DNA of 64,000 nucleotides from an uncultured Candidatus Saccharibacteria bacterium (GCA_964642155.1 CAZXNT010000001.1:65238-129237); one strand, 5' to 3'. Numbered from the stretch's first letter, positions 27,833 through 55,584 are shown. A program made the numbers and translations. The notes: generated from the sequence alone by a model not told the origin.

Positions 27833-28366
27833 TTATATTTCTATTATTTTCCAAATATTATTAGGATAAAGACCTATTCTAATATAAATTGGCTCGTCAA
27901 TAAAAAATTCTTTTCTACCAGGAATATCATCTGATGAAAAATATCCATTTGTAGATTTTTTAAGTAAACTAAGATATTTATCTATAAATTCTTTTGTCAC
28001 TTTATTTAATTTTTCCAATTCTTTTTCCTGATATTTCTCTATAAAATATTTACTCGCCAATTCGTAATTTCCTGTTTCAACGGCGCTTATGTACATTTGC
28101 AAAGTTTCCTGCGGAATTCTACCGCCATAAGTGTCCGCCATGGCTTTTTGATAATCTTCTTGTTTAATTCTTTCCAATCTTCCAGCTAATTCTTCAACCG
28201 CTTTTTCTCCCTGCCATTGCCTAAAAAAATACCAACACCAAGAACTGGCGATATACAAAACAAAAACACCGGCGATTATCGTGAAGAATATCAATGTGAA
28301 CTTCCAAAATTTGCCTTTCGGCTTATTAATTTCGTTTATTTGATTGTTTTGATTTTGATTTTCCAT
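27833..28366 (-). CDS. small membrane-anchored protein, paralog of 26733..27266
   Basis: Same architecture. Its start codon abuts the terminal inverted repeat of MITE copy 1. Confidence 0.5.
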   Translation of the reverse strand: MENQNQNNQINEINKPKGKFWKFTLIFFTIIAGVFVLYIASSWCWYFFRQWQGEKAVEELAGRLERIKQEDYQKAMADTYGGRIPQETLQMYISAVETGNYELASKYFIEKYQEKELEKLNKVTKEFIDKYLSLLKKSTNGYFSSDDIPGRKEFFIDEPIYIRIGLYPNNIWKIIEI

Positions 28367-28513
28367 CCCTCACCCTTCAAAGATTTTCCAGTACATAAAG
28401 CTTTTTATGTACTGGATTATATTGAAGTTTAATTTTATTTTATATCTCATTCATTTTACTTATCATTCCCCTTTACCACTTTCTTTATTTCTTATCTTTG
28501 AAGGGTGAGGGAT
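28365..28513. mobile_element. MITE-like element copy 1 (20-bp terminal inverted repeats ATCCCTCACCCTTCAAAGAT / ATCTTTGAAGGGTGAGGGAT)
   Basis: Termini are identical to the copies at about 50081-50223 and 55438-55584. The interior is AT-rich with a hairpin. Confidence 0.6.
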
Positions 28514-28649
28514 TTTCAAAATAAAAAGGACGTATTCCAAAAAACACGCCCCCTCACTCAGGCATAATTAAATTATAAATCGCCACATTTTTCCGTCAAC
28601 CACTCTCTCTGTGGATAACTTATTTATCTAATACATTAAACTCTAAATA

Positions 28650-29522
28650 CTACTTACAAAGACAGAGAAATGGATGAGCGCAGTCATATACATAAGTTGT
28701 ACCACATCCAACATTTAATACAGCATTACTCTCGCCAAAATATAATGTAGCTTCGCATGTTTTTCCAATTTGAGAACATTTAGTGGCGCAACTTACATCG
28801 CGACAAGTCCATTCTGAAAAAAGAGCTCCTCCGCCTGCTGTGGTTTGTGTCGTGTTATCTGGAAATTTGAAACCGCCAGCGGTACTGTGAATTGTGCCGG
28901 CAACTTCTAATTTGCTATTTGGTATAGTCGTACCGATGCCGACGTTGCCGTTTTCTAAAATTGTTAGGGTTTTAGTAGTCACAACACTGCTTACATATCT
29001 AGTAATATCAAAATCTCCAGAAGTGCCGCTTGATCCCATCTTCCAGCCGTGGATACCTCCAGCGCCGTTATTTTGCGCAAGAAAAATCTGATTCTTAGTG
29101 CCAAGAGAAGATTCTACAATTTCTAACTTATATGCAGGCGCCGTCGTCCCAATACCGACGTTGCCATTTTTTATGGTCAAAACATCTGAGTTATTATTAT
29201 TGATGATTAAGGCGGAATCGGTGCCGAGTTTGAATAAAGTGGAAGTGGCTGATTGTCTGGATAATTTAAGCACAGAATCGGAAGAAGTGGAGTAGATTTC
29301 CATTTTAGCGCCGGGATATAAGGTACCGATACCGATATTATTGCTGGAATCGGAATATAAGGTCTGGCCAGCTGGATTGGGAGGAATAGTAGTAGGGGCA
29401 TTCCAACTAAAAACTAATTTAATAATAATTGTGATTAAGAAAAGAGCGGCGAAAAATAAAGATGAATAAAAGAAGGGTTTTTGGTGATTTTTTTTGAAAA
29501 ATAAAATAACAGCCCGCGCCAA
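28650..29522 (-). CDS. secreted repeat protein with tail-fibre-like GNVGIGTT.P..KLEV repeats and a Cys-rich C-terminus
   Basis: Hydrophobic N-terminus. Three repeats NVGIGTTAPAYKLEI / NVGIGTTIPNSKLEV. The start is read as TTG directly after the (CT)n tract. Confidence 0.5.
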   Translation of the reverse strand: MARAVILFFKKNHQKPFFYSSLFFAALFLITIIIKLVFSWNAPTTIPPNPAGQTLYSDSSNNIGIGTLYPGAKMEIYSTSSDSVLKLSRQSATSTLFKLGTDSALIINNNNSDVLTIKNGNVGIGTTAPAYKLEIVESSLGTKNQIFLAQNNGAGGIHGWKMGSSGTSGDFDITRYVSSVVTTKTLTILENGNVGIGTTIPNSKLEVAGTIHSTAGGFKFPDNTTQTTAGGGALFSEWTCRDVSCATKCSQIGKTCEATLYFGESNAVLNVGCGTTYVYDCAHPFLCLCK

Positions 29523-29526
29523 TTTA

Positions 29527-29551
29527 CTCTCTCTCTCTCTCTCTCTCTCTC
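29527..29551. repeat. (CT)12 dinucleotide microsatellite immediately 5' of the start of 28650..29522
   Basis: Read directly from the sequence (ctctct...c, 25 nt). Confidence 0.9.
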
Positions 29552-29660
29552 GGATTGTGATTATTGATGAATTTCATAATATTATAGTCACTAGCATTAT
29601 AAATTATTATTATACTCTAAATTATTTTATTTAGTAAATCTCTGTATTTTAATTTTTTTA

Positions 29661-31175
29661 TTATTTCATTCCGAAACTCACCATAAATTCAACTCCTTTG
29701 TCGGTTCGGTTAATTTTAGTAATCGGAAGATCCACATTATTAAAACCCTCGGCAATCAATTTGTTTTTAAAATCAATCGCCGCGTCTTCGCTCGGCCCTA
29801 AAGCGTTAAAAAGCAAGGGCATATCAATTGACTGGACATAAATTCTTCTGATGGAAATACTATCGCCGGCCGCCAAATTGCCGATTTTTTCAAAAAACTC
29901 CGACCACGCGGAACGCTCGGCGCTCACCTTAACGGCAAAATCTATTTTTTGGTTAAAACTTTCTATATCTTTTTTAATTTTTTCAAATTCTCCCCTTTCC
30001 GATTGCTTATATTGTCCCAAACCGGAAATTTGATTATTCAACGAAACAATGGTTTTATCTAAAAACAAATTATTAATACCGATAAAAACGATTAAAACAA
30101 CCGCCAATGTGATTAAAACGACATTGCGCCAAATTTTAATAAAATCTAAAATTCTGTGTTGGAAAAATTTTTCCTCCGTTCCTATTTTCGCAAGACTTAT
30201 CATATTGTCTTTTGAGCGCGGAGTTATTCCCCTAATGGCTGAACCTAAAACTGAAAACCAGGCTGGCTGGATATTTTCCGGCGCGACATCGCCGATTTTT
30301 TTAAGACTAAGCGGTTCAACTTTGCTGAAAGAAAAATTCTCGGACACTATTTTAACAATAGCGTCGTTTAAGCCGTAGGTTACTAAAATCATCTCGTCAA
30401 TTTGCTCTTTCCAGCGGGTATTATAAAAACTTAAAACTTTTTTAACGTCGTCAATAATTAATTTTTTGAAAAGATCCATGGGAATTTCTTTTATTTCCGA
30501 ATGGACCATTTGCCAAGGAACAAAATGGTTAAAATACAAATTGCCGTTTCTCACAAGATTAAAACTTAAACCGTTGACGCCAATATAAAATAAAATAAAC
30601 GGTTTGTTTTTACTCACATTTGCCCCAAAATCAACCGCCAATCTTGCGAGAGCCAAACCGCTGAATTCAAAAGCCACCGGCATAAAATTGGCTTCTTTTA
30701 AAGATTTATCAAATTCGTCAATCATTTGCGATTCGCTAAAAGCCCCAAGAATTTCCAATTGGTCGCGGCCATCAATCACTTCTTCGCCAATTGCCTGCCA
30801 ATCAGAATAAACCTTGCTAAAATCAGTCGGGGAAATCATTTTTAAATTCAAATCAACAGCTTCTTCAAGATTACCTTCCAACATCGGCAAATTAAATACC
30901 TGAAAATAAACGTTATTATCGGGGAAGTTAATAATAACGTTAAGCTTTTCTTTCGCTTTCGCGGTTATTTGGGAATGTATAACTGACAATGCCGATACAA
31001 ATCTTTTGTAATCGCTTATTTTACCGTCCTCAACCACTCCAGCCGCCAATTTCGCGGAATAAGAAATAAATTTATCATCTTTAATAAGACTAAATTTCAA
31101 ATCAACGTCGCTTATTTCTAAAGCGCCGATTTTCGGCTGGGGATTTAAAATTTTAAAAATTTTTTTGTAATTCAT
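29661..31175 (-). CDS. pilM: type IV pilus assembly protein, PilM-PilN(-PilO) fusion
   Basis: N-terminal actin-like PilM region (LEISDVDLKFSLIK, LGSAIRGI). Single TM helix (VVLITLAVVLIVFIGI). Coiled-coil PilN/PilO-like C-terminal part. Likely start MNYKKIF at about 31175. Confidence 0.6.
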   Translation of the reverse strand: MNYKKIFKILNPQPKIGALEISDVDLKFSLIKDDKFISYSAKLAAGVVEDGKISDYKRFVSALSVIHSQITAKAKEKLNVIINFPDNNVYFQVFNLPMLEGNLEEAVDLNLKMISPTDFSKVYSDWQAIGEEVIDGRDQLEILGAFSESQMIDEFDKSLKEANFMPVAFEFSGLALARLAVDFGANVSKNKPFILFYIGVNGLSFNLVRNGNLYFNHFVPWQMVHSEIKEIPMDLFKKLIIDDVKKVLSFYNTRWKEQIDEMILVTYGLNDAIVKIVSENFSFSKVEPLSLKKIGDVAPENIQPAWFSVLGSAIRGITPRSKDNMISLAKIGTEEKFFQHRILDFIKIWRNVVLITLAVVLIVFIGINNLFLDKTIVSLNNQISGLGQYKQSERGEFEKIKKDIESFNQKIDFAVKVSAERSAWSEFFEKIGNLAAGDSISIRRIYVQSIDMPLLFNALGPSEDAAIDFKNKLIAEGFNNVDLPITKINRTDKGVEFMVSFGMK

Positions 31176-31185
31176 ATAAAAAAGT

Positions 31186-33036
31186 TTAAAAACCAACTTC
31201 GCCGTTTTTTGAATCAAAACCGACATCACTTAATCCCTGAGTGGACACGCTCTTGGCGGAACCGGTTAACTGCAAATTAACAAATTCGTCAACGGCGCTT
31301 ATTAAAGAATCTCCGATTAATATCGGATACTTCCCGATTTGATTGGCATTTGGCAATAATTCTATTTGGAAAACAGCTTCAACCGGCTTATTAATAATGC
31401 CCTTGGTTGCCGCGATTCTATCAATAAGCCAACTCACTTCTTGCGTTCTTTCATTATAAACCGGGATAGTATTTATATTGCTTTTTGCTTCACCAATAAG
31501 CCTGACACCCGGACCAAGATACGCCCCAACACTCGCATTTTTAATATCAGTGGAATAATTCCTGACAATCCAATGAACAATAAAATTTATCGGATTATTA
31601 GCTTTCGGCGGAAGCGAACCTTTATTTAAAATTCCGGAAGCTAAAATTGAAAAATCGCGGAAATAAATTTTTGAATCAAGGGCAACGGCGCCGGCAACTT
31701 TTATTTCCCAATTTGCAAAACTAGTTGTTTTATCGGTCGCCACATAATACGGAACGGTCGGCGAAGAAATATCAGCCGCGACTTTCAAAATAAAATTTTT
31801 ATCGGACAATCTTTTAATAGGATAACTCGGCTTCACACTTATTTCAAATTCAACCGCGCCGCTTCCGCCGGGTTCAATTAAATGCAATTCTGCATTGCTT
31901 GCCGCATTCCACGTTAAAGTGTTATCGCGGGAATCAAAAGAGGCATTGGTTCTTAATTGGGAAAAATCAAACATTTCTCCGCTTAATTTCGTCTTAACCA
32001 CAACGTCTCCAAGTCCAACGTCGCTATTATTTGAATAAACAACTCTGAATTTTAAATTGCCACCCGGCAAAACATATTCCGAAGAAACGTCAAATTCAAT
32101 TTTTAAAAAAAGCGGCGACGGCGCGATATTCACCTTCGCGGATTTCTCGCTGATTTTAAAAACTTGATTTTCACCTGCCTGACCGGCGGGCAAGTAAGAA
32201 GCTTCAATGTTTGAATTGATTTCAAAAAACGTTTGATTAATGCCGGAAATTTTTCCAACAACGGCGATTTCGCCTTTCTGATTTTTATTTAAATTGCCAA
32301 TATCTAAAACATTGTCGCTAACCGCGGGGTTGGAACTTTTAACGATAAAATCTTTGGGAAAATTAAAATTCAGTTTAACGCTGGAAAAATCAAATTCGGA
32401 AATATTTGAATATTTGATTACCACTTCAAACTCTTCATTGTTTAAAACTTTTTCCGGAGCGACAAGGTCAAACTTGATGGCCGGTTCGCGGACGGAAACT
32501 TCCACGGTTTGTTTTTTTTCAAAAGTAGTTCCCAGAGCCGAGGTATAACTTACTGAAACATTGAATTTTTTAACTGACTCGCCGTCGCTAAAAATTAAAA
32601 TTTTTATTTTCTCGCTGAAACCGCTTTCTGGATTGATATCTCCGATTTCTTTTTCAAAATTTCTTTTTTCTTTGCTAATATTCAACGCCGCCACTCCTTC
32701 TGGCAATAAAACAGAAAGCCTAACGTTTTCCAAAACTTTTTTTGAACCATTGTTAAAATCCACCGCCAAATCAAACGGAACACCCATTAGAACATTGTCT
32801 TTGGCAGATGCGATAAGCGATATTTCGCGGCTGGCTGAGAAATAATTATAAAAATAAAAACTTGACACTGCCACTCCTATCGTCGCCAAAGCAACCAACA
32901 CCCAAAATATCCGATGGCTTATGAGGCTAATTTTTACGACGGGCGCGCCGGCTTTTTTGCCAAAATTTTGCGCTAAATCAAACTTTTGTTCCTTATTCCA
33001 ACTTGAACCGTAATTTTTATTATCTTCTTGGGCCAT
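31186..33036 (-). CDS. membrane-anchored protein with multiple beta-sandwich (CARDB/DUF11-like) domains, pilus-associated by position
   Basis: N-terminal TM (IFWVLVALATIGVAVSSF). Repeated V.V.Y.N beta-rich modules. Likely start MAQEDNK at about 33036. Confidence 0.45.
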   Translation of the reverse strand: MAQEDNKNYGSSWNKEQKFDLAQNFGKKAGAPVVKISLISHRIFWVLVALATIGVAVSSFYFYNYFSASREISLIASAKDNVLMGVPFDLAVDFNNGSKKVLENVRLSVLLPEGVAALNISKEKRNFEKEIGDINPESGFSEKIKILIFSDGESVKKFNVSVSYTSALGTTFEKKQTVEVSVREPAIKFDLVAPEKVLNNEEFEVVIKYSNISEFDFSSVKLNFNFPKDFIVKSSNPAVSDNVLDIGNLNKNQKGEIAVVGKISGINQTFFEINSNIEASYLPAGQAGENQVFKISEKSAKVNIAPSPLFLKIEFDVSSEYVLPGGNLKFRVVYSNNSDVGLGDVVVKTKLSGEMFDFSQLRTNASFDSRDNTLTWNAASNAELHLIEPGGSGAVEFEISVKPSYPIKRLSDKNFILKVAADISSPTVPYYVATDKTTSFANWEIKVAGAVALDSKIYFRDFSILASGILNKGSLPPKANNPINFIVHWIVRNYSTDIKNASVGAYLGPGVRLIGEAKSNINTIPVYNERTQEVSWLIDRIAATKGIINKPVEAVFQIELLPNANQIGKYPILIGDSLISAVDEFVNLQLTGSAKSVSTQGLSDVGFDSKNGEVGF

Positions 33037-33041
33037 TTTAT

Positions 33042-33614
33042 TTATATTAATAATAATTGATTTTGAGCAATTTTTCCAGCGCATTTGACGCATAAAAAAA
33101 TATGCTCGGGTTTTAAAAAATAATCGGCTCGCGGATTATCGCAAACAACGCAAGAAGCGTGTTCCGGGTCAAATCCCAAAATTTTCAACAAGCCGCGATA
33201 AATTACCCTATCTTCAAGGCCGGCCAAATCGGCGCTGAAAATTTTTTTAATCGCCTGCCAAAGACGCAAATCCTGATGAAGCTCAAAAGTCATTTCATTG
33301 ATAAATTGCGCGATATTCAAAAATTTCGCGAGATTTTCCGGATTTTTTTCCAATTGAGAACCGTCTTCAATAGTCAACGCATCAACCACCTGAAATCCCT
33401 GCCTGCCGGCAGATAAGGCATTCTTCTCAATCAACCGACAATTGACAAAATTAAGCGGCTGAAGATGGCTGTTGAGTTTGGAAGTTATTTTTCTCGCGCT
33501 TTTCGCCATGGCAATCACTTTACCGAAATCGCGGGTATATAAAGTAATAATGGCATCCAATTCTTTGCTTATTTTATTGTCGAAAACAAACGCCTCAGTA
33601 TAATGTTCAAGCAT
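33042..33614 (-). CDS. recO: DNA repair protein RecO
   Basis: OB-fold N-terminus and C-terminal zinc finger CVVC...CVKC. Confidence 0.6.
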   Translation of the reverse strand: MLEHYTEAFVFDNKISKELDAIITLYTRDFGKVIAMAKSARKITSKLNSHLQPLNFVNCRLIEKNALSAGRQGFQVVDALTIEDGSQLEKNPENLAKFLNIAQFINEMTFELHQDLRLWQAIKKIFSADLAGLEDRVIYRGLLKILGFDPEHASCVVCDNPRADYFLKPEHIFLCVKCAGKIAQNQLLLI

Positions 33615-33631
33615 ATGTTATAATTATATAT

Positions 33632-33713
33632 GCTCCCGTGGCGGAACTGGAATACGCGCGGCGTTTAGAACGCCGTCCCGCAAGGGTTAGAGGTTCAAAT
33701 CCTCTCGGGAGCA
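33632..33713 (+). tRNA. tRNA-Leu (anticodon TAG), long variable arm
   Basis: Acceptor stem GCTCCCG/CGGGAGC. Anticodon stem CGGCG/CGCCG with loop TTTAGAA. T-loop GGTTCAAATCC. Confidence 0.75.
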
Positions 33714-33715
33714 CA

Positions 33716-34051
33716 TTATTTCCCCCTGTCGCCGTATTTTTCAAAAATCGTCCAAAAACTGAAAATTTTTTCTCCTTCGTTATAAACTTTATGAAAATCG
33801 CCGGCGGGTATAAGAACAACATCCTCTGCTTTAACGGAAATTTTTTGTTCCGCCACTTCTATTAATCCTTCTCCATCAATAAAAATATGAACCTCATCAG
33901 CATCGCTATGAGAATGACCGGTTGTGGCTTTCCCCGGATAAAGTTCTGTTAAGGAAAGAGTTAAATGATTTAAACTGGACAAGTCATAAACCTTATAAAT
34001 TTCATTGTCTCGTATGAGTTTGGCTGATTGTTTATATTCTTTGATATTCAT
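33716..34051 (-). CDS. cupin-domain protein
   Basis: Cupin motifs GHSHSDADEVHIFIDGEG and VVLIPAGDFHKVYN. Confidence 0.65.
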   Translation of the reverse strand: MNIKEYKQSAKLIRDNEIYKVYDLSSLNHLTLSLTELYPGKATTGHSHSDADEVHIFIDGEGLIEVAEQKISVKAEDVVLIPAGDFHKVYNEGEKIFSFWTIFEKYGDRGK

Positions 34052-34060
34052 ATTATTATT

Positions 34061-34535: not shown

Positions 34536-34547
34536 AATGCCGTTTAT

Positions 34548-35092: not shown

Positions 35093-35098
35093 CAATTG

Positions 35099-35854: not shown

Positions 35855-35879
35855 TACAATAAGCGCAATATAAAAAATA

Positions 35880-36254
35880 ATGACCGAAATACAAAACAAA
35901 AAAATTCTGGTTGTTGAAGATGAAAAACCTCTTTGTGATGCGATTAAATTTAGATTGGAACGCTATGGAATAACGACTTTTATCTCCAATTCAGCAGAAG
36001 AAGCGATGGAAATTCTAAAAAAGGAAAATGTTGATTTGATATGGCTTGATATAAAATTGCCGAGAGTAAACGGCATTGATTTTTTAAAAATAATTAGAAA
36101 TAATCCTGATTGGAAAGATAAAAAAGTGATAGTTGTTTCCGCTTCCGGAAGCGATGAAATGAAAAATACAATGAGAGAAATGGGAATTTTAGATTATATA
36201 GTGAAAAACGAGATGAAATTAGATGACATAGTCGCGCGCGCCGCGAACGCTTAA
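35880..36254 (+). CDS. stand-alone response-regulator receiver (CheY-like) protein
   Basis: ILVVEDE...DLIWLDIKLP...VVSASG pattern with conserved phospho-acceptor Asp. Confidence 0.8.
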   Translation: MTEIQNKKILVVEDEKPLCDAIKFRLERYGITTFISNSAEEAMEILKKENVDLIWLDIKLPRVNGIDFLKIIRNNPDWKDKKVIVVSASGSDEMKNTMREMGILDYIVKNEMKLDDIVARAANA

Positions 36255-41884: not shown

Positions 41885-43146
41885 TTTTTAAAAATCTTCA
41901 AAAAACCGACTCTGAAATTTACAAACTTATCGTTGCTGAAGATAAACGGCAGAAAGAAACAATAAACCTGATTGCTTCGGAAAATTTTGTTTCCGAAAGT
42001 GTTCTTGAAGCGTTGGGTTCGGTTTTCACTAATAAATACAGCGAAGGATATCCTCATGCCAGATATTACGGAGGCAATGAATTTTGCGACAAATTGGAAG
42101 AATTATGCCAAAAAAGAGCACTTAAACTTTTTAAACTTTCGGCGCGCGAATGGAGCGTTAATGTTCAACCGTATTCCGGTTCTCCGGCAAATCTAGCCGT
42201 CTATTTGGCGCTTGTGCCAATTGACGAATCCGCCTTCGCGCAAGGCTACGGCGGACGAGGAAAAATAATGGGAATGCAACTTGATATGGGCGGGCATCTG
42301 ACGCACGGACACAAAGCGAGCGCCACGGGGAAATTATGGCAACAAATTCCTTACGGCGTTGATGAAAAAACCGAGCAATTAAATTATGATGAAATTTTAC
42401 AAATTGCCAAAAAAGAAAAACCGAAATTGATTGTTTGCGGCTATACCGCTTATTCGCGAATTATTGATTTTAAAAAATTCCGAAAAATCGCCGATGCTGT
42501 TAATGCTATTTTAATGATTGATATGTCTCATTTTGCCGGATTGGTTGCCGGAGGCGTTTATCCTTCTCCTTTTAAATACGCTGACGTTATCACGACAACA
42601 ACGCACAAAACTTTGCGAGGACCCCGCGCCGCGCTCATATTTACGAATAAAAATAAAAAATTACATTACACCAGCGATAGCATGTCTAATGTAATAAATA
42701 AAGCTGTTTTCCCGGGATTGCAAGGCGGGCCACATATGAACGCCGTTGCCGCCGTTGCCGTAGCCTTACAAGAAGCCGCCAAACCGGCTTTTAAAAAATA
42801 TAGCCAACAAATAATAAAAAACGCTAAAACTTTTGCTTTGGAACTGCAAAAACTCGGCTGGCGAATTATTGCTAACGGCACGGATACGCATTTATTTTTA
42901 GTTGATACATGGTCGCGCGGAATTAGTGGAAAAACCGCCGAAACCGCGCTTGAAAAAGCCGGTATAATTGTTAATAAAAATACGATTCCGTTTGACAAAC
43001 GAAGCCCAATTGACCCATCCGGAATAAGAATCGGAACAGCGGCAATCACCAGTCAGGGACTAAAAGAAAAAGATATGAAAAAAATCGCGAAAAAAATAGA
43101 TAAAATTCTAACGGGGTTGACAAAAAAATATAGTAAGTTAAAATAA
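41881..43146 (+). CDS. glyA: serine hydroxymethyltransferase
   Basis: LIASENFVSESVLEALGS and TTTTHKTLRGPR (PLP-binding Lys). Confidence 0.9.
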   Translation: MIFKNLQKTDSEIYKLIVAEDKRQKETINLIASENFVSESVLEALGSVFTNKYSEGYPHARYYGGNEFCDKLEELCQKRALKLFKLSAREWSVNVQPYSGSPANLAVYLALVPIDESAFAQGYGGRGKIMGMQLDMGGHLTHGHKASATGKLWQQIPYGVDEKTEQLNYDEILQIAKKEKPKLIVCGYTAYSRIIDFKKFRKIADAVNAILMIDMSHFAGLVAGGVYPSPFKYADVITTTTHKTLRGPRAALIFTNKNKKLHYTSDSMSNVINKAVFPGLQGGPHMNAVAAVAVALQEAAKPAFKKYSQQIIKNAKTFALELQKLGWRIIANGTDTHLFLVDTWSRGISGKTAETALEKAGIIVNKNTIPFDKRSPIDPSGIRIGTAAITSQGLKEKDMKKIAKKIDKILTGLTKKYSKLK

Positions 43147-43404: not shown

Positions 43405-44826
43405 TTATATTATTACATTGTGGGCTTTTTTATTTTCCAAAATTTCCTCCACGATTTTTTTTTCGTCCCACGGAATTTTTTTATTGCCCGCAACGCACAT
43501 TGACGACTCCCCTCCCTTCCCCGTTAAAATAACAACATCTCCTTTTTGCGCCAAAAACAGCGCCTTTTTAATCGCTTCTCTCCTATCTATAATTTCATAA
43601 ATTTTGGAAATTGGAAATTGTCTGGCTTCGCCAGATCTCGCGAAGCGAGAGAAATTGGAAATTCCAGATTTTATTTCCGATAAAATCTGGCTGGGTTTTT
43701 CGTCATATGGGTCTTCATTCGTCAAAATAACTTCATCGCAATATCGCGTTGCTATTTCGCCCATTTTCGGCCTTTTCCATTTATCCCGTCCTCCGCCCTG
43801 CGCCCCCAATAAACATATCAACTTTGAATTCTGAATTCTGAATTCTGAATTCTGAATTGTTTGATATACTGCTTCCAAACTCACCGGTTCATGGGCGTAA
43901 TCAACAATCACGGTAAAATCACTTACCTTGATAATCTCCATTCTGCCTGCCGGCGATTTTGCCTGCGCCAACGCTTCTTTTATTTTTTCAATCGGGATAT
44001 TTAGCGACAAAGTAACCGCAATCGCCGCCACGGCATTATAAACATTAAATTCCCCAACTAATAGTATTCCAATAATTAATGGTATTTCAATTTTATTACA
44101 TTGCATCTGCGATAGCAGATGTAATGTAACTTCGAATTTTGTTTTATCTGAATATAATTTAATATTTTCTACTTCTAAAATTTTATTTACTTTTGACTTT
44201 TGATTTGAACTTTTGACTTTTATTCCGTATCCGTATTTATTTTTAATTTCCGGTTTTAAAAAATATTCAACGTTTTCATCGTCTAAGTTATAAATCCCAA
44301 CACCATTTTTCTTTCGTGCCACTCTTTCAAATAATTTTATTTTTGCGTTCCGATAATTTTCAAAACCGCCGTGCCGTTCAATATGTTCAGGCGATAAATT
44401 TGTAAAAACCGCGATATCATAATCAATAAAACGATGTCTGTATTGCAAAATCCCCTCTGAAGAAGTTTCTACCACCGCGTATTCGCATTTTTCCGCAACC
44501 ATTTGCCTCAGCAATTTTTGCAGCTGAAACCTGCCGAGCATTGTCTGCTTTGATTCGTTTTTCCATTCCCGCTCGCCTATCCGAAAATCCACCGTGGTTG
44601 CCATTCCGACTTTATGGCCGCTGAAATTCAAAATTTGAGCGATTAAATTGCAAGTGGTGGTTTTTCCTTTGGTTCCGGTAACACCGATGACTTTCATTTT
44701 GTGAGACGGAAAACCATAAATCAAGGCTGAAAAAAATGCCAGAGAAAAATGATAAATCGGCTGGCCGAGCCGATATAAAAATTTCGGAATAATATGTTTT
44801 TCAAAAAATCTTAAAATTTTCTCCAT
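43405..44826 (-). CDS. murE: Mur ligase family protein (MurE-like), with in-frame repeat insertions
   Basis: VIGVTGTKGKTTT P-loop, NLSPEHIERHGGFENYRNAK and a C-terminal GGGRDKWKRP Mur-ligase motif. Contains a 34-bp palindrome, a (GAATTCT)4 tract and a double-hairpin element. Confidence 0.7.
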   Translation of the reverse strand: MEKILRFFEKHIIPKFLYRLGQPIYHFSLAFFSALIYGFPSHKMKVIGVTGTKGKTTTCNLIAQILNFSGHKVGMATTVDFRIGEREWKNESKQTMLGRFQLQKLLRQMVAEKCEYAVVETSSEGILQYRHRFIDYDIAVFTNLSPEHIERHGGFENYRNAKIKLFERVARKKNGVGIYNLDDENVEYFLKPEIKNKYGYGIKVKSSNQKSKVNKILEVENIKLYSDKTKFEVTLHLLSQMQCNKIEIPLIIGILLVGEFNVYNAVAAIAVTLSLNIPIEKIKEALAQAKSPAGRMEIIKVSDFTVIVDYAHEPVSLEAVYQTIQNSEFRIQNSKLICLLGAQGGGRDKWKRPKMGEIATRYCDEVILTNEDPYDEKPSQILSEIKSGISNFSRFARSGEARQFPISKIYEIIDRREAIKKALFLAQKGDVVILTGKGGESSMCVAGNKKIPWDEKKIVEEILENKKAHNVII

Positions 44827-46075: not shown

Positions 46076-46077
46076 TA

Positions 46078-49299: not shown

Positions 49300-49812
49300 T
49301 TATTTTTTTAATATTACTCTTGGCATTCGATCTAAGTCAATAAAATAATCGGCTACTTCTTTAAGTTTAGCGGACGCGCTTCTGCCGAACGCCGCCACCT
49401 CCACTTCTCTGCCCAATCCCCATTTTAGATATTCAACTAAAGGAATAAAATCTCCATCGCCGGTCACTAAAATAATAGCGTCCAAAGAATTTGCCATCCT
49501 GATGGCGTCAACCGCCATCCCCACGTCCCAGTCAGCTTTTTTCATTCCGCCCGCGAAAATCTGAAGGTCTTTCATTCTTAATTCAATACCGGATTTTTCC
49601 AAGGCTTCAAAAAAAGACGCTTCGCCGGAAATAGCCGATTGCTCGCTCTTTACCACATAGCCGATCGCCCTTATTAATTGGCGATTGCCAATAAGCGTTT
49701 TTATCAATTCTTTATAATTGACTCTGGCGTGATGGATATTCTTCGCCGAATGGTAAAGATTTTGAATATCAATAAAAATTCCGACTCGCTGATCTTTGTG
49801 TTTAACTAACAT
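49300..49812 (-). CDS. NYN/LabA-like PIN-fold domain protein
   Basis: VGIFIDIQNLYHS ... AIILVTGDGDFIPLVEYLK motif. Inserted between rpsO and pnp. Confidence 0.65.
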   Translation of the reverse strand: MLVKHKDQRVGIFIDIQNLYHSAKNIHHARVNYKELIKTLIGNRQLIRAIGYVVKSEQSAISGEASFFEALEKSGIELRMKDLQIFAGGMKKADWDVGMAVDAIRMANSLDAIILVTGDGDFIPLVEYLKWGLGREVEVAAFGRSASAKLKEVADYFIDLDRMPRVILKK

Positions 49813-50082
49813 TTATTTTTTCAAGCCGAGTTTTCGCACTAAGCTTGTATAACTTTTATTATCACTGCTTTCCAAATAAGAAAGGAATTTCTTTCTTTTG
49901 CCAACCATTTTTAAGAGCCCGCGGCGGGAATGATTGTCTTTAGCATTCTTCTTAAGATGGTCAGCTAATTCATTAATCTGCTTGGTTAAAAGCGCGATTT
50001 GAATTTCAACCGACCCGGTGTCGGTTTCATGAAGCCCGTACTCTTTCGCGATATTTTGTTTTTGCCTGACGGTTAAAGCCAT
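49813..50082 (-). CDS. rpsO: 30S ribosomal protein S15
   Basis: [16 protein letters not shown]...[20 protein letters not shown]. Confidence 0.9.
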
Positions 50083-50223
50083 CCCTCACCCTTCAAAGAT
50101 TTTTTATGAATTTTATTTATTAAAATTCATAAAATTATGATAATTGAAGATTAATTTTAATTTATTTATTATTTATTCCCTGCGCCATAAAATGATATTT
50201 ATTATCTTTAAAGGGTGAGGGAT
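50081..50223. mobile_element. MITE-like element copy 2, abutting the rpsO start codon
   Basis: Left terminus ATCCCTCACCCTTCAAAGAT at 50081-50100, right terminus ATCTTTAAAGGGTGAGGGAT at 50204-50223. Internal palindrome. Confidence 0.6.
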
Positions 50224-50314
50224 AATTTATAAAATTTAACACAGGTTAAAATAAAAAACAAGGGCAGTAAAAAAGTTTTGTTTGCAAAGAAGAAGAGGGC
50301 GCGAAAGGGACTCC

Positions 50315-50710
50315 CTATAAGATTTTTGAATACTCTTGATAATTTTTTCTTACCACCGCTTTCCAACTTGCGGTTTCGTTTTCACCCCCTAAATCATTTT
50401 TACTATATACCAATAAAACACGGACGGTTGAAGTGTGTTTATGAACAGCGATAATGCACCTATTGCCGGAAGCGTGTCTAGACTCTTGAGTTCCATGCAC
50501 ACGGAACTCTGTTTTGCAAACCCTTACATCCCCAGCTTCAGTAATGGTTTCTGCTATGTTTGTTTGCCCGATCAATGTATCAATGCGCTTAAACTCCTCG
50601 TGCATAGCAGTCCAAGTTACATCCCATGCCCCTTTATGCTTCTTTTTAAATTTAGAGATAAAGTGTCGTTCCGCGTATCGTTCTATAATAACCGTATAAT
50701 TAGTAAACAT
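50315..50710 (-). CDS. putative toxin partner of the HTH-Panacea antitoxin (family not recognised)
   Basis: 131-aa ORF overlapping the upstream antitoxin-like gene by 11 bp. GC-rich relative to its surroundings. Confidence 0.4.
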   Translation of the reverse strand: MFTNYTVIIERYAERHFISKFKKKHKGAWDVTWTAMHEEFKRIDTLIGQTNIAETITEAGDVRVCKTEFRVHGTQESRHASGNRCIIAVHKHTSTVRVLLVYSKNDLGGENETASWKAVVRKNYQEYSKIL

Positions 50711-51377
50711 AATCGGGGTCCTGTTGAGTTATCAATTCATACGGAATCATTTCATCTGGAGCGCAGAGTTTGTAGGGTAACTGTTCGTGAGTAAAATCAA
50801 TAATTTCTTGAGTTCTTTTATTTTTCCACTTTGTGGATATTTTTTTCATTAAATTAACTTCTTCGGTTTTAAGAAAATCAAGTTTTTGGTGTTGCGCGCC
50901 CGCGCCAATAAGAATGGCGCCACCCTTATAATCAACAGTTATTTTCCCTTCCTCCTCAAGCTCTGCAAGCGCTCTGAAATACGAATCGGGCACAGGACCA
51001 TACGTTCGGCGCAAATATTGCATCCCGCTCATACTCTCAAGATTCGTGTAATACCACGCGAAATCAGCCAAATAGAGAAGCTTGGCTAATTTAGTTTTTG
51101 GAACTTTTCCGTCAGTAGAAATTGAAGATTTAAGAAAAGCAATAATCATTTGCTTATATTTTTCATACTTTGGCAAAGTGGCTTTTGCAAATTCTTCGAT
51201 AGAAATGCCGAACAGATTTTTTAACTTCTGCGCTTCATCTAGGGTGAGACCCCTGTTCCCGCGCTCAATGGCTACATATGAAGGACGGGAAAGCCCCAAT
51301 TTATCCGCGACAAAAGACTGCGAAAAATCCCGCTCTGTTCGAAGAGCTTTTATAAATTGCGCATATTTATTAATCAT
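50700..51377 (-). CDS. HTH (XRE-family) plus Panacea/DUF4065-domain protein, putative antitoxin
   Basis: N-terminal Cro/C1-type HTH (FVADKLGLSRPSYVAIERG). C-terminal KLAKLLYLADFAWYY resembles the DUF4065 signature. Confidence 0.55.
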   Translation of the reverse strand: MINKYAQFIKALRTERDFSQSFVADKLGLSRPSYVAIERGNRGLTLDEAQKLKNLFGISIEEFAKATLPKYEKYKQMIIAFLKSSISTDGKVPKTKLAKLLYLADFAWYYTNLESMSGMQYLRRTYGPVPDSYFRALAELEEEGKITVDYKGGAILIGAGAQHQKLDFLKTEEVNLMKKISTKWKNKRTQEIIDFTHEQLPYKLCAPDEMIPYELITQQDPDYVY

Positions 51378-51481
51378 ACTAGAAGTATATTTATGTATGT
51401 AAAAAAGTCAAGCATTAAGTGTTGATAAATTTTACATTTAAAAATTAAGGTTGTAAGATAACGGCGACGATCATCCTTTGG

Positions 51482-52294
51482 TCATGGACGCCCTAGTGGA
51501 AATGCCCGAGGCGCAAATGCCCTTATGTTTGCCCCTCCTACCCCTTTTGCGCGCACAGAGAAACGCTCCCGTCCTTTCAAACTATACTTAAAAACATCGT
51601 TCACTTCTCGAATATTTTTATTTGCTTCTTTTACATATATAGGTTGAACTTCTGTTCCTAAATAATTTCTTCTATGTAATAAAGCAGCTACGGCAGTGGA
51701 ACCCGAACCCATAAATGGGTCCAAAATAGTATCTCCTTCTTTGCTGAAAAGTCGCATGAACCACGAAGGTAATTCAATTGGAAAAACAGCGCTATGATTT
51801 TTTCTCGAAGAGGATTCGACAGCTGATTCAAATATATTACTCAAATACAATCTATGTTCTTCTTCAAAAACTATTACATTATGCGGGAAAACCTTTTTCT
51901 TATTAAGCCAATTTGAAACATTGCGACCTAAATGAGAATTGTTTTTAGAAATGTGTCTGACAAAATCATTTTCGCTCATTGATTTAAAACGCTTCTCTGC
52001 CCAGCTCCCAATTGGAACCTTAACCGCATCTTGATACATTTTGAAATCTTTTTGCTTTGTGAATTGTAAACAACATTCCCATGAATCACGAAACCGATTG
52101 GGCCATTTTCCAGGGAATGAATTTTTCTTATACCAACAATACTCTTCGATCCAAAACCATCCTTGCTTTTTCAATTCCAAAATTAACTCCAGAACATAAG
52201 TTTCTCGCTCACCATTTTTGGGATGTTCTTTTATATTGAGAATAAATAAACCATCGTCTTTTAGTACTCTGTAAAGTTCTTTTGTGATCGGCAA
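51482..52294 (-). pseudogene. N-4/N-6 DNA methyltransferase (PF01555-like), N-terminally truncated and lacking the DPPY motif
   Basis: C-terminal SAM motif DPFMGSGSTAVAA and RVLKDDG block are present. The frame is closed by an upstream stop about 30 codons before TTG, with no DPPY/NPPY. The sortase gene's 3' end occupies the expected N-terminal coding region. Confidence 0.5.
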
Positions 52295-52371
52295 AAACCA
52301 CTGAACATATTTATCTGGATGAGTACCACCATACGATTTTTTTCTTTTTTCCCGACGGGGTTTGTATTTTG

Positions 52372-53007
52372 TTATTCTTTATCAGTAAAAACTATGAGTC
52401 GATCAGAACGAGTTTTCTCGGCCTTATTCCAAACTCCCGCGCAAGTAATAAGGTTAAGGTGCGCTTTTCCGTCACTTGAACCAAATACATCCGAGGCATC
52501 CGCGTTCTTGTCATATCTCCGAATTTCGCGCACAACAAAAGTAACAATCGCCCCTTTTTCATTTTCAATATACATTTTATCACCTTTGCGTATTTTATGT
52601 AAATTATCAAATACTGCCGGTATATCATTTTTCCAGCCATAGTGCCCGGCAATAACAGAACTTCCGTTTTCTCCGGGGCGCGGGCCGAGATTAAACCACG
52701 CTACCCCAATAGGACCTTTAGGCACGTCCATTGCTCCGTCGGATGTAAGACCTACATACTCGACGGAGGCATCAACCTTTATACTTGGAATTTTGAGATG
52801 CACCGGAAGTCCCATACCCCCTTGTTGCTGGGTCAGTATTTGGGATAATTGCTGCTGAAGCTGGACTATCTGTTGTTGAATCTGGGTAATTAATGTTTGA
52901 AGTTGGCTGTCAGTCATTCGCTGAGCCTTTACGACAAGGTTCGGCGATAATAAAAAAAACACTACTATAAATAATAAGATTGATAAACTCTTTCGGAAAA
53001 ATTTCAT
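52372..53007 (-). CDS. sortase (TLITC active site) with N-terminal TM and Gln-rich coiled coil
   Basis: Catalytic His (VIAGHYGW), Cys (LNLITCAG) and Arg (TRSDRLIVF). Signal-anchor MKFFRKSLSILLFIVVFFLL. Confidence 0.75.
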   Translation of the reverse strand: MKFFRKSLSILLFIVVFFLLSPNLVVKAQRMTDSQLQTLITQIQQQIVQLQQQLSQILTQQQGGMGLPVHLKIPSIKVDASVEYVGLTSDGAMDVPKGPIGVAWFNLGPRPGENGSSVIAGHYGWKNDIPAVFDNLHKIRKGDKMYIENEKGAIVTFVVREIRRYDKNADASDVFGSSDGKAHLNLITCAGVWNKAEKTRSDRLIVFTDKE

Positions 53008-53113
53008 ATTTTTATAGTTTAATTACTTTATTTATTATACTACAACCAAAAACTACTCATAAAAGGTGGCTATAGAAAATACGCAGGCAAAAGAAGAAAA
53101 AGATAACTAATAC

Positions 53114-54355
53114 CTACTTAACACTAGGAGGAAAACCTGTATTTGGCAGTTTTATCATTGCTGAGAGTTGAGCTTGAAGTAATTGTACTAATTGCTGCAT
53201 CAGAGGAATGAGCTGTTGTTTAATCTGGTTAATCTGGGCTAAAATCTGCTGGTTTGATACAGGTGTCGGTGTCGGTGTCGGAGCTACTGTTAGTACAACC
53301 ACAGGAGTTGAGGTTGGTGTTGGTGTTGGGGTAGGGGTAGGGGTAGGTGTTGGTGTTGGTTGGGTAACATTAACCACCACACTGTTCGACGCACCAGCAC
53401 AATTTATTGAATACGTTGTATTTGATGTCGGTGAAACGCTAACACTTCCTGAAATAGCATTTCCTGTTGAGAAGTTGGTACCAGAACAACTTGCCGCATT
53501 TGAGCTTGACCACGATAGGGTTGACGAATTACCACTTATGATTGAGGTTGGATTTGCTGAAATTGTTGCTGTTGGGGTTGGTGGTGGAGTAACGGCAACA
53601 ATTGGCTTGGTAACAGTGTTTGCATCTAACGTAGCTGCGGTCTGTGCGAGTGCCCTGCCGTTTAGCGTTGCACCGGTGTTCAGCACAATTGCTGTTTGAT
53701 CCAATATATTTCCATTAAAGACAGCTGTCGTTCCAAGTGTCGTTTGGCCAGCAACCTGCCAGAAGATGTTAGCGGCCTGCGCACCGCCACTCAGGACAAC
53801 CTGCACAGCGGAACTCACAGTGAGATTTTGCGCTATCTGAAATATCCAAACATCATTGGCACCGCCCGAGAGAGTGACATTCGTTGGTATTGTCACGCCG
53901 GTACTCCATTTATAAAGTCCCGGAGCTAATGTCATTCCGCCAATATTTCCCGCACCCAATTCAGTCGCAGTCGGATTTGTTCTCCCCGCGGCATCAGTGT
54001 ACGCGGTTTCCATGTCACTTACCGCTGTAGTCATTGTAGCTGGAGTAGGAGCCGTATAGTCGGCTGCATATACTTTTCCGGTTACTATGGCTGATGTCGA
54101 AAATGTATTCGAAGCGTCCAGTATTAATCCGAATCCAGTTATGGCAGTCGCGGCGATTGGGCTCACTCCAATATCTCCAGTAATTGAGGTATTTCCGGTG
54201 GTTGAGATCCCCGACTTCGTTAGAATCACGAAATTGCCTGCTGATCCGAGATTTACTGTCGCTGGACCTGCAGCAAGCACAGCCATTGGCCCGGTGAGAC
54301 CAAACATAAATGCAAGACCTAATACAACCACTAAACCCTTGTTAAATTTTTTCAT
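53114..54355 (-). CDS. surface protein with DUF3494 (ice-binding-like) domain, Ig-like domain, PT linker, Gln-rich coiled coil and C-terminal LPNTG
   Basis: LGSAGNFVILTKSGISTTGNTSITGDIGVSP matches the DUF3494 signature. (PT)n linker. The ORF ends KLPNTGFPPSVK. Confidence 0.7.
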   Translation of the reverse strand: MKKFNKGLVVVLGLAFMFGLTGPMAVLAAGPATVNLGSAGNFVILTKSGISTTGNTSITGDIGVSPIAATAITGFGLILDASNTFSTSAIVTGKVYAADYTAPTPATMTTAVSDMETAYTDAAGRTNPTATELGAGNIGGMTLAPGLYKWSTGVTIPTNVTLSGGANDVWIFQIAQNLTVSSAVQVVLSGGAQAANIFWQVAGQTTLGTTAVFNGNILDQTAIVLNTGATLNGRALAQTAATLDANTVTKPIVAVTPPPTPTATISANPTSIISGNSSTLSWSSSNAASCSGTNFSTGNAISGSVSVSPTSNTTYSINCAGASNSVVVNVTQPTPTPTPTPTPTPTPTSTPVVVLTVAPTPTPTPVSNQQILAQINQIKQQLIPLMQQLVQLLQAQLSAMIKLPNTGFPPSVK

Positions 54356-54454
54356 ATATTTTATTTATTTATTATTTTGTTAATGACTTTTATTGGTGGC
54401 AAGTATGGTCGACTACATACATGTTCCAATAATCGATTATTTTTTACGACCTTT

Positions 54455-54500
54455 ATTATAGTTTACCCCCCCCCCCGATAATTTTGCAATGTGTATTAAG
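54455..54500 (-). promoter_or_regulatory. candidate promoter with a G12 homopolymer (C12 on the plus strand, 54466-54477) between a TTGCAA -35-like hexamer and a perfect TATAAT
   Basis: Minus-strand read: TTGCAA aattatc G12 taaac TATAAT, about 95 nt upstream of the start of 53114..54355. Confidence 0.45.
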
Positions 54501-54815
54501 TCCACCCCTTTCATATCTCAGTGTTAGCCGCCGAAAATCCAAAAACAAAATCAGTCTCGGTTTTGCCAAATCCCTTCTCCCAGAAAATAGTTTTGGCAAA
54601 ACCGAGTCCGCATTAGTTCCGCCACACTGCCCAAATACTTGGAGAGCAGAACCTCGAAAAAAAATGTCTTTTCTTTTTTAAAAGAAATTGGTCGCGCGCA
54701 AATCCGAAAATGCGAACAAAACTTTTCTGTGGTGTGGCGAGCGTTAGCGAGCGGCGGCGGGGCGGGTCAGTTGTTCCGCTCAAAATGGGTTCGTGCATTT
54801 TCAAACAAAGGGCAG

Positions 54816-54890
54816 TGTCCTCGACAGGAATCGAACCTGTACCGCCTCCTTCGGAGGGAGGCATTGTATCCATTCAACTACGAGGACTTA
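54816..54890 (-). tRNA. tRNA-Arg (anticodon CCG)
   Basis: Reverse complement has acceptor stem GTCCTCG/CGAGGAC, anticodon stem CCTCC/GGAGG with loop CTCCGAA, and T-loop TTCGATT. Confidence 0.75.
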
Positions 54891-54923
54891 GCAATCTAAT
54901 TCTGAATTTATAATTCTAAATTA

Positions 54924-55439
54924 TTAATTAAAGCGAAGCTTTATATACGCCACGTCGCTGGGCTGAGGAGAATAAGAAATTTTCATATCAATCCGCCATT
55001 TGACAGATTTAAAAGTGTCTTTGATTTTTTTGGCAATTTTTACGGCAAGTTGGTTTTCGGTAACGGTTATCGTCATTTCGCTTTTATTTTTTTTAACGGC
55101 AATCAGCCTGTCCATCGGGTCGCGTTCATAAGCCCGCCGGCCGAATGTCATTATTAAATGTTCAATTTCGCTGAAAATTTCAGAAGGAATGTTTTTAATA
55201 ATAATCTCTCCCTCAAACTGTCTGTTTTTAATCATCTTGCAAGCCGGACATAAAGAAAATTTAATGGGCAAATTTTCGCGGAGATTTTTATAATTTCGCA
55301 AATTGTGATGCCAAGATTTTTTATAATAAACCGCGTTGCAATCTTTGCAAAAAACCAAACCCAGTTTCCCTTTTGGTAATTCACGCTCTTCTGTTCGCGG
55401 CAAAATTATTTTATTGTCATATTGTTTGCGCCTTTCCAT
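54924..55439 (-). CDS. hypothetical zinc-ribbon protein (CKDC...CPAC)
   Basis: Two CxxC pairs. The start codon abuts MITE copy 3. Confidence 0.4.
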   Translation of the reverse strand: MERRKQYDNKIILPRTEERELPKGKLGLVFCKDCNAVYYKKSWHHNLRNYKNLRENLPIKFSLCPACKMIKNRQFEGEIIIKNIPSEIFSEIEHLIMTFGRRAYERDPMDRLIAVKKNKSEMTITVTENQLAVKIAKKIKDTFKSVKWRIDMKISYSPQPSDVAYIKLRFN

Positions 55440-55584
55440 CCCTCACCCTTCAAAGATCTATTTTTAATTTTAATATAATTAAAATTAAAAATAAAATTCT
55501 TTAAATTATTATTTTATTAAAATTTTATTTTTTACTCTTTAATCCTTTATCCTTCAATTTTCCAATCTCTGAAGGGTGAGGGAT
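55438..55584. mobile_element. MITE-like element copy 3
   Basis: Termini ATCCCTCACCCTTCAAAGAT ... ATCTCTGAAGGGTGAGGGAT. AT-rich palindromic interior. Confidence 0.6.

Follow-up and report, generated by a model that had tools for sequence, protein, structure and literature searches.

Mobile inverted-repeat elements flush with start and stop codons in Paceibacteria, and their probable part in translational coupling

The window analysed here is a stretch of 64,000 nucleotides from an uncultured Candidatus Saccharibacteria bacterium (GCA_964642155.1 CAZXNT010000001.1:65238-129237). It contains three copies of a short inverted-repeat element, each joined on the minus strand to the start codon of a gene. 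The 20-mer ATCCCTCACCCTTCAAAGAT is matched at six places with zero or one mismatch, namely 28365-28384(+), 28494-28513(-), 50081-50100(+), 50204-50223(-), 55438-55457(+) and 55565-55584(-), and zero matches were obtained in 100 dinucleotide-preserving shuffles. These matches form three inverted pairs delimiting elements of 149, 143 and 147 bp (28365-28513, 50081-50223 and 55438-55584). The interiors are AT-rich and barely alignable, each with its own hairpin of 12-16 bp, and the left arm of all three copies, read on the minus strand, ends in ...GGGAT, the next G completing the ATG of a real open reading frame (ORF). The scan agrees in these respects with an initial annotation made from the sequence alone, which had described three elements of 143-149 bp with 20-bp inverted ends and divergent AT-rich interiors, each with its own palindrome, the repeat end supplying the AT of the adjacent ATG. 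The window holds no further copy of the element and no similar start-fused inverted repeat. The features at the three sites are the following.

28365-28513, minus strand: copy 1, 149 bp, arms with 0 mismatches, ahead of the first of three paralogous 177-aa genes
28365-28384, minus strand: ATG-proximal arm of copy 1, ATCTTTGAAGGGTGAGGGAT on the minus strand, its final two bases being the AT of the ATG at 28366-28364
28494-28513, minus strand: distal arm of copy 1, without stop fusion, the upstream ORF ending 136 nt off
28387-28416, minus strand: 13-pair hairpin in the interior of copy 1, separated from the proximal arm by 2 nt; its plus-strand reading scores as terminator-like
28370-28450, minus strand: small ORF of copy 1, 26 codons, MRYKIKLNFNIIQYIKSFMYWKIFEG, with its TGA inside the proximal arm
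28524-28555, minus strand: terminator-like hairpin with a T-run, between copy 1 and the next feature
28572-28599, minus strand: near-consensus promoter-like site, TTGACG-16-TATAAT (11/12), upstream of the entire copy 1
27833-28366, minus strand: gene fused to copy 1, 177 aa, with paralogs at 27281-27817 and 26733-27266
50081-50223, minus strand: copy 2, 143 bp, ahead of rpsO; the one mismatch of its distal arm is a U-G wobble in the sense RNA
50102-50134, minus strand: interior hairpin of copy 2, 14 A-U/G-C pairs, adjoining the proximal arm
49813-50082, minus strand: rpsO (ribosomal protein S15; PF00312, E=2.8e-32), fused to copy 2
55438-55584, minus strand: copy 3, 147 bp, the entire spacer from the permease stop to the NMD3-like start
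55459-55493, minus strand: interior hairpin of copy 3, 16 A-U pairs, adjoining the proximal arm
54924-55439, minus strand: NMD3-like zinc-ribbon gene, 171 aa, fused to copy 3
55584-56768, minus strand: amino-acid permease gene, upstream of copy 3, with its TAA stop at 55584-55586

The stop codon of the small ORF of copy 1 lies 3 nt ahead of the main ATG and in the same frame. Since the promoter-like site stands upstream of all of copy 1, a transcript starting there would include both arms. The first base of the distal arm of copy 3 is also the last base of the permease stop codon, so that copy 3 constitutes the whole intergenic space. When folded as RNA with the arms closed, copies 1, 2 and 3 reach -52.4 kcal/mol (z -7.9), -47.2 kcal/mol (z -6.5) and -47.4 kcal/mol (z -7.1) respectively, and the helix of copy 3 begins at the last A of the permease UAA. 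A Logan short-read contig of the same organism (L076 13014-13103, equivalent to about 55495-55584 of the window) stops inside copy 3, which suggests that the repeat breaks assemblies.

The distribution of the family was investigated in 185,579 species genomes with the query ATCTNTNAAGGGTGAGGGAT. The genome scan returned 68 loci, nearly all from metagenome-assembled genomes (MAGs) of Patescibacteria labelled as Jorgensen-, Lipton-, Wolfe-, Brenner- or Harrisonbacteria or as Paceibacterota, and a handful of single-arm chance matches in other phyla. The family is spread through one Patescibacteria clade, the Paceibacteria/Parcubacteria, including Wolfe-, Jorgensen-, Lipton-, Harrison- and Brennerbacteria; the S15 protein of the window is 94% identical to that of a Wolfebacteria MAG. 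With three mismatches allowed, 69 inverted pairs of 70-178 bp were collected, window copies included, and the arm order is ATCCC...GGGAT in all of them. One arm is fused to an ATG opening a real ORF (median 188 aa) in 63 of the 69 copies. In 42 of these 63 the opposite arm meets the stop codon of an upstream ORF that runs in the same direction and is 50 aa or longer, with a one-base overlap in 39 cases and direct abutment in 3. The initial annotation had called for a genome-wide search for a bias of position relative to start codons, and this bias is indeed present. The fusion to stop codons, the fixed orientation, the residence in ribosomal-protein operons and the internal small ORFs are additions to that annotation.

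At least 20 distinct ribosomal-protein junctions are occupied, among them S13-S11 in four genomes, L6-L18, S8-L6, L16-L29, S19-L22, L2-S19, L14-L24, L18-S5, S11-S4, rpoA-L17 and infC-L35. Copies also precede the genes of S15, S18, S2, S3 and L21, as well as lysS, glyS, gyrA, ligA, uvrC, recR, mraZ, mraY and pilus genes, and a 70-nt mini-copy lies between the 23S and 5S rRNA genes of a Jorgensenbacteria genome. A single MAG (CAYOSD) contributes at least 17 loci, and Jorgensenbacteria GWA1_48_11 at least 10. Because orthologs and recent paralogs make up many of the copies, these counts do not stand for independent events. Of eight relatives in an unbiased sample of rpsO loci gathered by S15 homology, the closest alone carries the element, and a decayed arm and a variant-arm family were met nearby; the rpsO element is also present in the CAYOSD ortholog (L053), which the arm scan had yielded. 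Carriage by phages was considered and rejected, the 120 viral matches to a 14-mer being single chance matches, the best of them within coding sequence. A separate observation concerns the S10/spc operon of CAYTEE (L059), where unrelated repeat families of about 150 nt fill the L22-S3, L5-S14, S14-S8 and L2-S19 junctions (4676-4856, 1476-1643, 1135-1289 and 5650-5930), one of them also flush with an ATG. On this basis, intercistronic repeats seem to be a general habit of these genomes.

The mobility of the family is supported by 4-bp target duplications and by the comparison of filled and empty orthologous junctions, the flanks of which are 81-90% identical. Junctions that document insertion polymorphism are listed below; CAYOSD is 81-88% identical to the window.

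31176-31185, minus strand: empty site, window TAA ACTTTTTTAT ATG with a 10-nt spacer (junction 31186/31175), filled in CAYOSD (L020 3343-3498)
13760-13769, minus strand: empty site, window TAA TTTATAATTT ATG with a 10-nt spacer (junction 13770/13759), filled in CAYOSD (L060 2505-2649)
49205-49299, minus strand: empty site, NYN-to-pnp spacer, filled in the close relative L197 by a variant-arm copy right after the NYN stop
NMD3-like gene junction: filled in the window (copy 3), empty in the CAYOSD ortholog, which has a GTG start
S19-L22 junction: filled in CAYOSD, empty in JBBTVF (about 90% identical to CAYOSD), which reads TAA AAGTTT ATG

Junction 13770/13759 is also filled in a more distant Wolfebacteria MAG (L033 2529-2679). 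The S13-S11, L6-L18, S8-L6, L18-S5 and L16-L29 junctions are filled in some genomes and tight (1-24 nt) in others, and a solo distal arm remains at the pilT-pilC junction of L046, where Jorgensenbacteria carry a full element. Empty junctions have native spacers of 1-24 nt and never read TAATG, which contradicts TAATG as the pre-insertion site. At filled sites, this native spacer of 1-24 nt is gone.

Target duplication was evaluated on 70 copies by defining the core as TCCC...GGGA and comparing the four bases on each side. The flanking 4-mers are identical in 12 copies, where 3.2 are expected and 2000 permutations never gave more than 8; five additional copies match at three of the four positions. 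Among copies that are not fused to an ATG, the duplicated target is TAAA four times and TTTA once; these include three Brennerbacteria copies located 21-27 nt upstream of the L28, S16 and L34 genes. Among fused copies it is TGAA six times and TGAG once, and these seven read ATGAA/TCCC at the left junction and GGGA/TGAA at the right one. The presence of TGAA or TGAG on both sides indicates that these elements had inserted into the start codon itself; the old ATG stays on the left and a new one appears on the right. The old ATG is still found at the left edge of 11 fused copies, several of which have a real upstream stop 13-144 nt further up, the old spacer being still untrimmed. At the NYN-pnp junction, L197 reads TAAA/TCCC...GGGA/TAAATTAATT and the empty allele of the window TAATTTAATT, a comparison that fits a 4-bp TAAA duplication without indels. 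The fusion to the ATG arises because the final A of the element, followed by a duplication beginning with TG, rebuilds the codon; insertion chemistry explains it better than a delivered expression signal does. ORFs of 42-46 codons reading MNPSPFKD... across some elements were considered as a small protein gene, a candidate that was rejected: they begin at the old, duplicated start codon, and the Jorgensenbacteria ORFs are without codon periodicity.

The anatomy of the element is asymmetric. Oriented by the fused ATG, the sense strand comprises the distal arm, a stretch rich in A and with little structure, a hairpin placed 2-4 nt ahead of the proximal arm, this arm and the ATG. In 53 of 63 copies the strongest local hairpin is no more than 6 nt away from the proximal arm, in 3 it is close to the distal arm, and the 3' 40 nt of the interior are stabler than the 5' 40 nt in 58 of 61 (mean z -2.7 vs -0.4). 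The sense strand has more A than T in 58 of 63 copies and carries fewer T-runs than the opposite strand (37 vs 66); the copy in the 23S-5S rRNA spacer has the same polarity relative to transcription. The orientation of the element relative to the flanking genes and to transcription is fixed. Two families of candidates were dismissed on such grounds: an inverton, since promoters are not enriched between the repeats and 53-58 of 61-63 copies share one polarity, and a riboswitch, attC site or DNA-uptake sequence, in view of the fixed polarity, the variable core, the dispersal beside core genes and the low copy density only at gene starts.

Hairpin sequences vary freely, even among orthologous copies. 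The arms are paired by Watson-Crick rules at 1212 of 1260 positions. The outer 11 nt of the arms are near-invariant, and positions 13-18 covary, changing with compensation (at position 14, CG 45 times, GC 5, TA 4 and AT 2). At the S13-S11 junction the interiors have a similarity of 0.45-0.60, vs 0.51 after shuffling, and the arms match at 37-40 of 40 positions; the S11 proteins are 51-63% identical across three of the four genomes, the closest pair reaching 93%. Different element subfamilies can occupy the same junction in close genomes. Mini-palindromes of 32 nt made only of arm cores (CCCTYRCCCTTTTTAAAAAGGGTGAGGG) were also seen, at L045 3226-3255, L053 1030-1062, L007 2239-2270 and L197 1346-1377; they sit just inside the distal arm of some copies, and their presence in the rpsO orthologs of L053 and L197 accounts for a length of 178 bp, vs 143 bp for copy 2 of the window. 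Variant-arm relatives occur at L197 2384-2482 (ATCCCGCACCT...AGGTGCGGGAT) and at L059 7676-7842 (ATCCCTCACTCTTGCGCGAT...ATCGCACAAGAGTGAGGGAT), the latter nested beside a canonical distal arm. Their outer 9 nt or so are similar to those of the element and their inner half is altered with compensation.

The initial annotation had suggested that the element might carry a promoter. Sigma-70-like sites inside the elements amount to 28 sense matches, vs 28.8 with shuffled interiors, and no internal sense-strand promoter was found in scans of the three window copies, so this suggestion finds little or no support. Canonical promoters are in use in the clade, with TTGACA-17-TATAAT ahead of the 23S rRNA gene and the TTGACG-16-TATAAT site upstream of copy 1; in six relatives devoid of the element, rpsO is preceded within a few nt by TTGACA or TTGCAT boxes. 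Taken together, these results indicate that the elements are most likely transcribed through. As a separate observation, at many window genes (e.g. 14115-14135, 33615-33640 and 35855-35880) a TATAAT-like box stands only 6-12 nt ahead of the ATG and a Shine-Dalgarno (SD) sequence is missing, and the rpsO loci of relatives have a TTGACA-17-TAnnnT promoter ending 3-10 nt before the ATG, which suggests that leaderless or near-leaderless mRNAs are common in this clade.

The same annotation had proposed that the element may be a portable expression signal with a ribosome-binding-like tract, and this idea stands in part. The G-rich tract GGGTGAGGG could pair with a canonical 16S tail: the proximal arm would do so at -12.2 kcal/mol, GAAGGG standing 6 nt from the AUG. 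Set against this, the tract is part of an arm helix of -35.3 kcal/mol by itself, which takes in the A and the U of the AUG, and most window genes are without an SD sequence. A well-placed GGAGG precedes 3 of 60 window genes, from which the anti-SD is probably present, and none of the tight ribosomal-protein junctions of L059 has an SD. A Parcubacteria subgroup is reported to be often without the anti-SD motif CCTCCT (PMC9297842). The possibility of an altered anti-SD, with a 16S 3' end resembling the distal arm, was pursued by a metagenome scan for GTCGTAACAAGGTA N15-45 CCTCACCC, which gave only two irrelevant matches. The 16S gene is absent from the collected loci, and a walk from pgk beside the Jorgensenbacteria 5S-23S genes reached none, because 16S is unlinked to 23S-5S.

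Small ORFs may offer another way of reaching the start codon. In GC-richer genomes, 33 of 36 elements contain an ORF that starts with ATG, runs for 10 codons or more and terminates within the proximal arm or at an ATGA overlap, vs 9.4 expected with shuffled interiors and no more than 19 in any of 200 shuffles. Its stop is either the UGA of GGG-UGA-GGG-AUG or that of UUUGAAGG, and stop codons are depleted in the frame of the small ORF (3.5% vs 6.7-9.3%).

These observations are most readily accommodated by a non-autonomous family of MITEs (miniature inverted-repeat transposable elements) of Paceibacteria, a parasite that probably carries a built-in adaptor for translational coupling instead of a portable promoter or ribosome-binding site. 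Insertion inside a start codon, typically ATGAA, would duplicate a TG-initial target and yield GGGA+TGAA, so that the start codon is rebuilt, and insertion at TAAA would likewise keep a TAA stop on the left. In gene-dense genomes, presumably only such self-healing insertions survive. A later short deletion may then remove the old spacer and the old ATG to give TAA/TCCC...GGGA/TG, an element filling the space from stop to start; this majority form would follow from one deletion between two AA dinucleotides, that of the stop codon and that of TGAA. Without a promoter of its own, the element would be co-transcribed, and its arms would form a very stable helix burying the AUG and the G-rich tract. 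The downstream gene would be translated once the helix is opened by a ribosome that terminates at the flush upstream stop or translates a small ORF ending in the ATG-side arm, the latter being the putative route for copy 1 of the window and for most GC-richer copies. In the 'Min Jou' interaction between the coat and replicase cistrons of MS2 and in coupled ribosomal-protein cistrons of E. coli, a downstream start is sequestered by a distant upstream segment and freed only by a ribosome translating or terminating on that segment. Coupling by the element would resemble these systems; their pairing partner is a unique coding sequence evolved in place, whereas here both partners are the two ends of one portable repeat.

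Several points weigh against this scheme. No duplication beyond an ambiguous AT is found in 51 of the 70 copies, the three window copies included, and the trimming that would have erased it was deduced, not observed. No autonomous partner was found, either as an arm pair 0.4-4 kb apart in 0.64 Mb of clade loci and window or on viral contigs. The family was gathered by searching for the arm sequence, which makes the invariance of the arms partly circular, and arm mismatches on the sense strand comprise 21 G-U and 21 A-C, a balance that is uninformative as a wobble test and gives no direct sign of selection on RNA pairing as opposed to DNA symmetry. The peptide of the small ORFs is not conserved and shows no codon-position periodicity; AT-rich copies have a small ORF in 7 of 26 cases vs 4.3 expected, and copies 2 and 3 of the window have none, copy 1 alone possessing one. 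A flush upstream stop is missing from copies 1 and 2, and neither helix-opening route is evident for rpsO, downstream of copy 2.

A stronger version of the proposal holds that the mobile element was domesticated as a modular coupling device in a clade making little or no use of the SD sequence, and it is put forward only tentatively. The ends would clamp the upstream stop against the downstream start in a single helix, and the ribosome finishing the upstream gene or the small ORF would unzip it and restart at the AUG some 145 nt further on. If true, this would be a bacterial counterpart of termination-reinitiation or stem shunting, repeated in ribosomal-protein operons. At the other extreme, the element might be a purely selfish passenger, tolerated only where split codons heal, with an RNA hairpin devoid of any role and melted by ribosomes or helicases; its orientation bias would reflect nothing but the avoidance of a sense hairpin-plus-U terminator. 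We regard this as rather doubtful, although the target duplications and rapid turnover, the absence of G-U vs A-C asymmetry, the terminator-like antisense reading of the copy 1 hairpin, the scarcity of sense T-runs and the AT-rich copies lacking a small ORF all agree with it. It leaves aside the small ORFs kept open in GC-richer copies despite 30-40% divergence among ten Jorgensenbacteria copies, as well as the near-universal trimming to exact contact of stop and start, and a helix of -35 kcal/mol over the AUG of essential ribosomal-protein genes is not neutral unless it is opened.

The explanation of an expression cassette, kept because its ribosome-binding tract (GAAGGG/GGGTGA), and perhaps a promoter, boosts the gene, would draw on the pairing with the canonical 16S tail, on the three GGAGG-bearing window genes, on the frequently high expression of the downstream genes, such as those of ribosomal proteins, and on Brennerbacteria copies in which, by eye, an arm TTGAAG stands 16 nt before a TAAACT box upstream of L28, S16 and L34. 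It appears unlikely, given that promoter-like sites are not enriched inside the elements, that the strong one near copy 1 lies outside, that in relatives rpsO is served by a promoter lying a few nt from its ATG and needs no element, that the tract is locked in the helix, that most genes of the window and of related ribosomal-protein operons have no SD and part of the clade is reported to lack the anti-SD (PMC9297842), and that target duplication already accounts for the ATG fusion. Less probable still is a non-mobile intercistronic RNA signal encoded by the host, either an RNase III stem or a Nus-type antitermination site combining the hairpin with the boxA-like UCUUUGAA. The 20-bp helix has the size of an RNase III substrate, one copy resides in the 23S-5S spacer, where processing stems occur, the polarity is fixed relative to transcription, and AUCUUUGAA presumably resembles a Bacillus-type boxA. 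Such a signal is difficult to reconcile with the patchy occupation of orthologous junctions in genomes that are about 90% identical, with the target duplications, with the solo-arm remnant and with the lack of any Rfam family match, and even after cleavage halfway along the helix its GC-rich outer 11 bp (-20.9 kcal/mol) would still cover the AUG.

With respect to known systems, the MITE-like nature proposed by the initial annotation is borne out by copies of 70-178 bp that have only short non-conserved ORFs and no transposase gene, by terminal inverted repeats and target duplication, and by the polymorphic presence of multiple copies per genome. The REP/BIME sequences and the REPINs, associated with RAYT transposases, share with the element short conserved inverted pairs, a long hairpin, an intergenic location and many copies per genome. 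Each REP unit is a small palindrome, usually located after the 3' end of genes and without target duplication. The arms of the element are not self-complementary, lie at the 5' ends of genes and are associated with a 4-bp duplication. Identity with REP or REPIN was rejected, arm ATCCCTCACCCTTCAAAGAT being self-complementary only at ATC/GAT; no Y1 transposase was found among 30 window proteins scanned.

The Correia/NEMIS elements of Neisseria are comparable in size (about 100-155 bp), in their terminal inverted repeats of about 20-26 bp and in their short AT-rich target duplication (PMC2649163, PMC2229807); they too have many copies near genes, are co-transcribed into long hairpin transcripts and are polymorphic between related genomes. 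They duplicate TA, contain an IHF site, can create promoters at their ends and are substrates of RNase III (PMC2649163, PMC2229807). The present element differs from them by its 4-bp duplication (TAAA/TGAA/TTTA), by the lack of promoter enrichment, by its termini ATCCCTCACCC, by a last base that rebuilds the start codon and by its position flush with ATG and stop codons, in ribosomal-protein operons as well; the two share no sequence similarity and have hosts in different phyla. Identity with Correia/CREE was rejected accordingly, neither the TA duplication nor the Correia terminal sequence being found. The ERIC/IRU sequences of enterobacteria are also palindromic, of about 127 bp, and occupy intergenic spacers that are transcribed as part of operons (De Gregorio et al. 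2005, reviewed in PMC2229807); their sequence is conserved across genera at differing positions, their effect depends on orientation, and a ribosome terminating nearby has been proposed to unfold their hairpin (PMC2229807). In contrast to the element, ERIC occurs in both orientations without fusion to start or stop codons, and its proposed role is in mRNA stability through an exposed RNase E site, not in access to the start codon (PMC2229807). The Rickettsia palindromic elements are mobile palindromic repeats of a reduced genome that survive by sparing reading frames; they insert in frame inside genes and are translated, whereas the present element stays between genes and rebuilds their stop and start codons (PMC10969869).

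A search of Rfam 15 gave five tRNAs only for the window, and all matches of copy 3 and of a Jorgensenbacteria copy were far below threshold. In a literature of 8 million papers, the arm sequence was met only in unrelated primers and genes, with no description of the element found, and a 2024 review of prokaryotic MITEs mentions neither fusion to start and stop codons nor Patescibacteria. The 4-bp duplication, the strict polarity and the ends that rebuild start and stop codons set the element apart from Correia and ERIC. The family shows how a transposable element can colonise genomes with almost no intergenic DNA, even between essential ribosomal-protein genes. It provides a ready marker of recent genome change in uncultured bacteria of the candidate phyla radiation and a cause of assembly breaks. 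If the coupling is true, it would also represent a natural modular system for ribosome restart after termination where SD usage is weak or absent.

Other repeats and regions were noted in the window and its relatives. A second repeat family consists of a 35-nt palindrome with a perfect stem, ATTACATT(N)CGCGATAGCAG(N)AATGTAAT, found at 7617-7651, 7812-7846, 8515-8549, 9205-9239, 16056-16090, 42661-42695 and 44095-44129, each in a short spacer between genes and 9-12 nt ahead of a start codon. The junction preceding the transketolase gene (16047-16109 in the window) holds in CAYOSD a TCCC...GGGA element in place of this palindrome. Tandem heptamers (GAATTCT)n occur at 8177-8212, 8319-8354, 43813-43862 and 59508-59543, and (AATCAGA)7 lies directly upstream of rpsO in the related JBCLKO01 (L198 1590-1645), so that gene starts of this clade also bear repeats of another kind. 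An exact 83-nt direct duplication of the GAPDH gene's 3' end (19584-19666 and 20182-20264) makes up the beginning of a neighbouring 425-aa ORF (18354-19631) without Pfam match. The left end of the window (1-11300), together with its extension L074, encodes proteins like those of type IV secretion and conjugation (TrbL-like, PrgI, TraC-like) as well as a peptidoglycan-binding protein and a UvrD helicase, and is possibly an integrated conjugative region. Finally, a 63-nt repeat is present in two copies that are 79% identical (10065-10127 and 43610-43672), each containing a pair of short GC hairpins with GAAATTGGAAATT motifs on their flanks; both lie inside annotated long ORFs, on the opposite strand.

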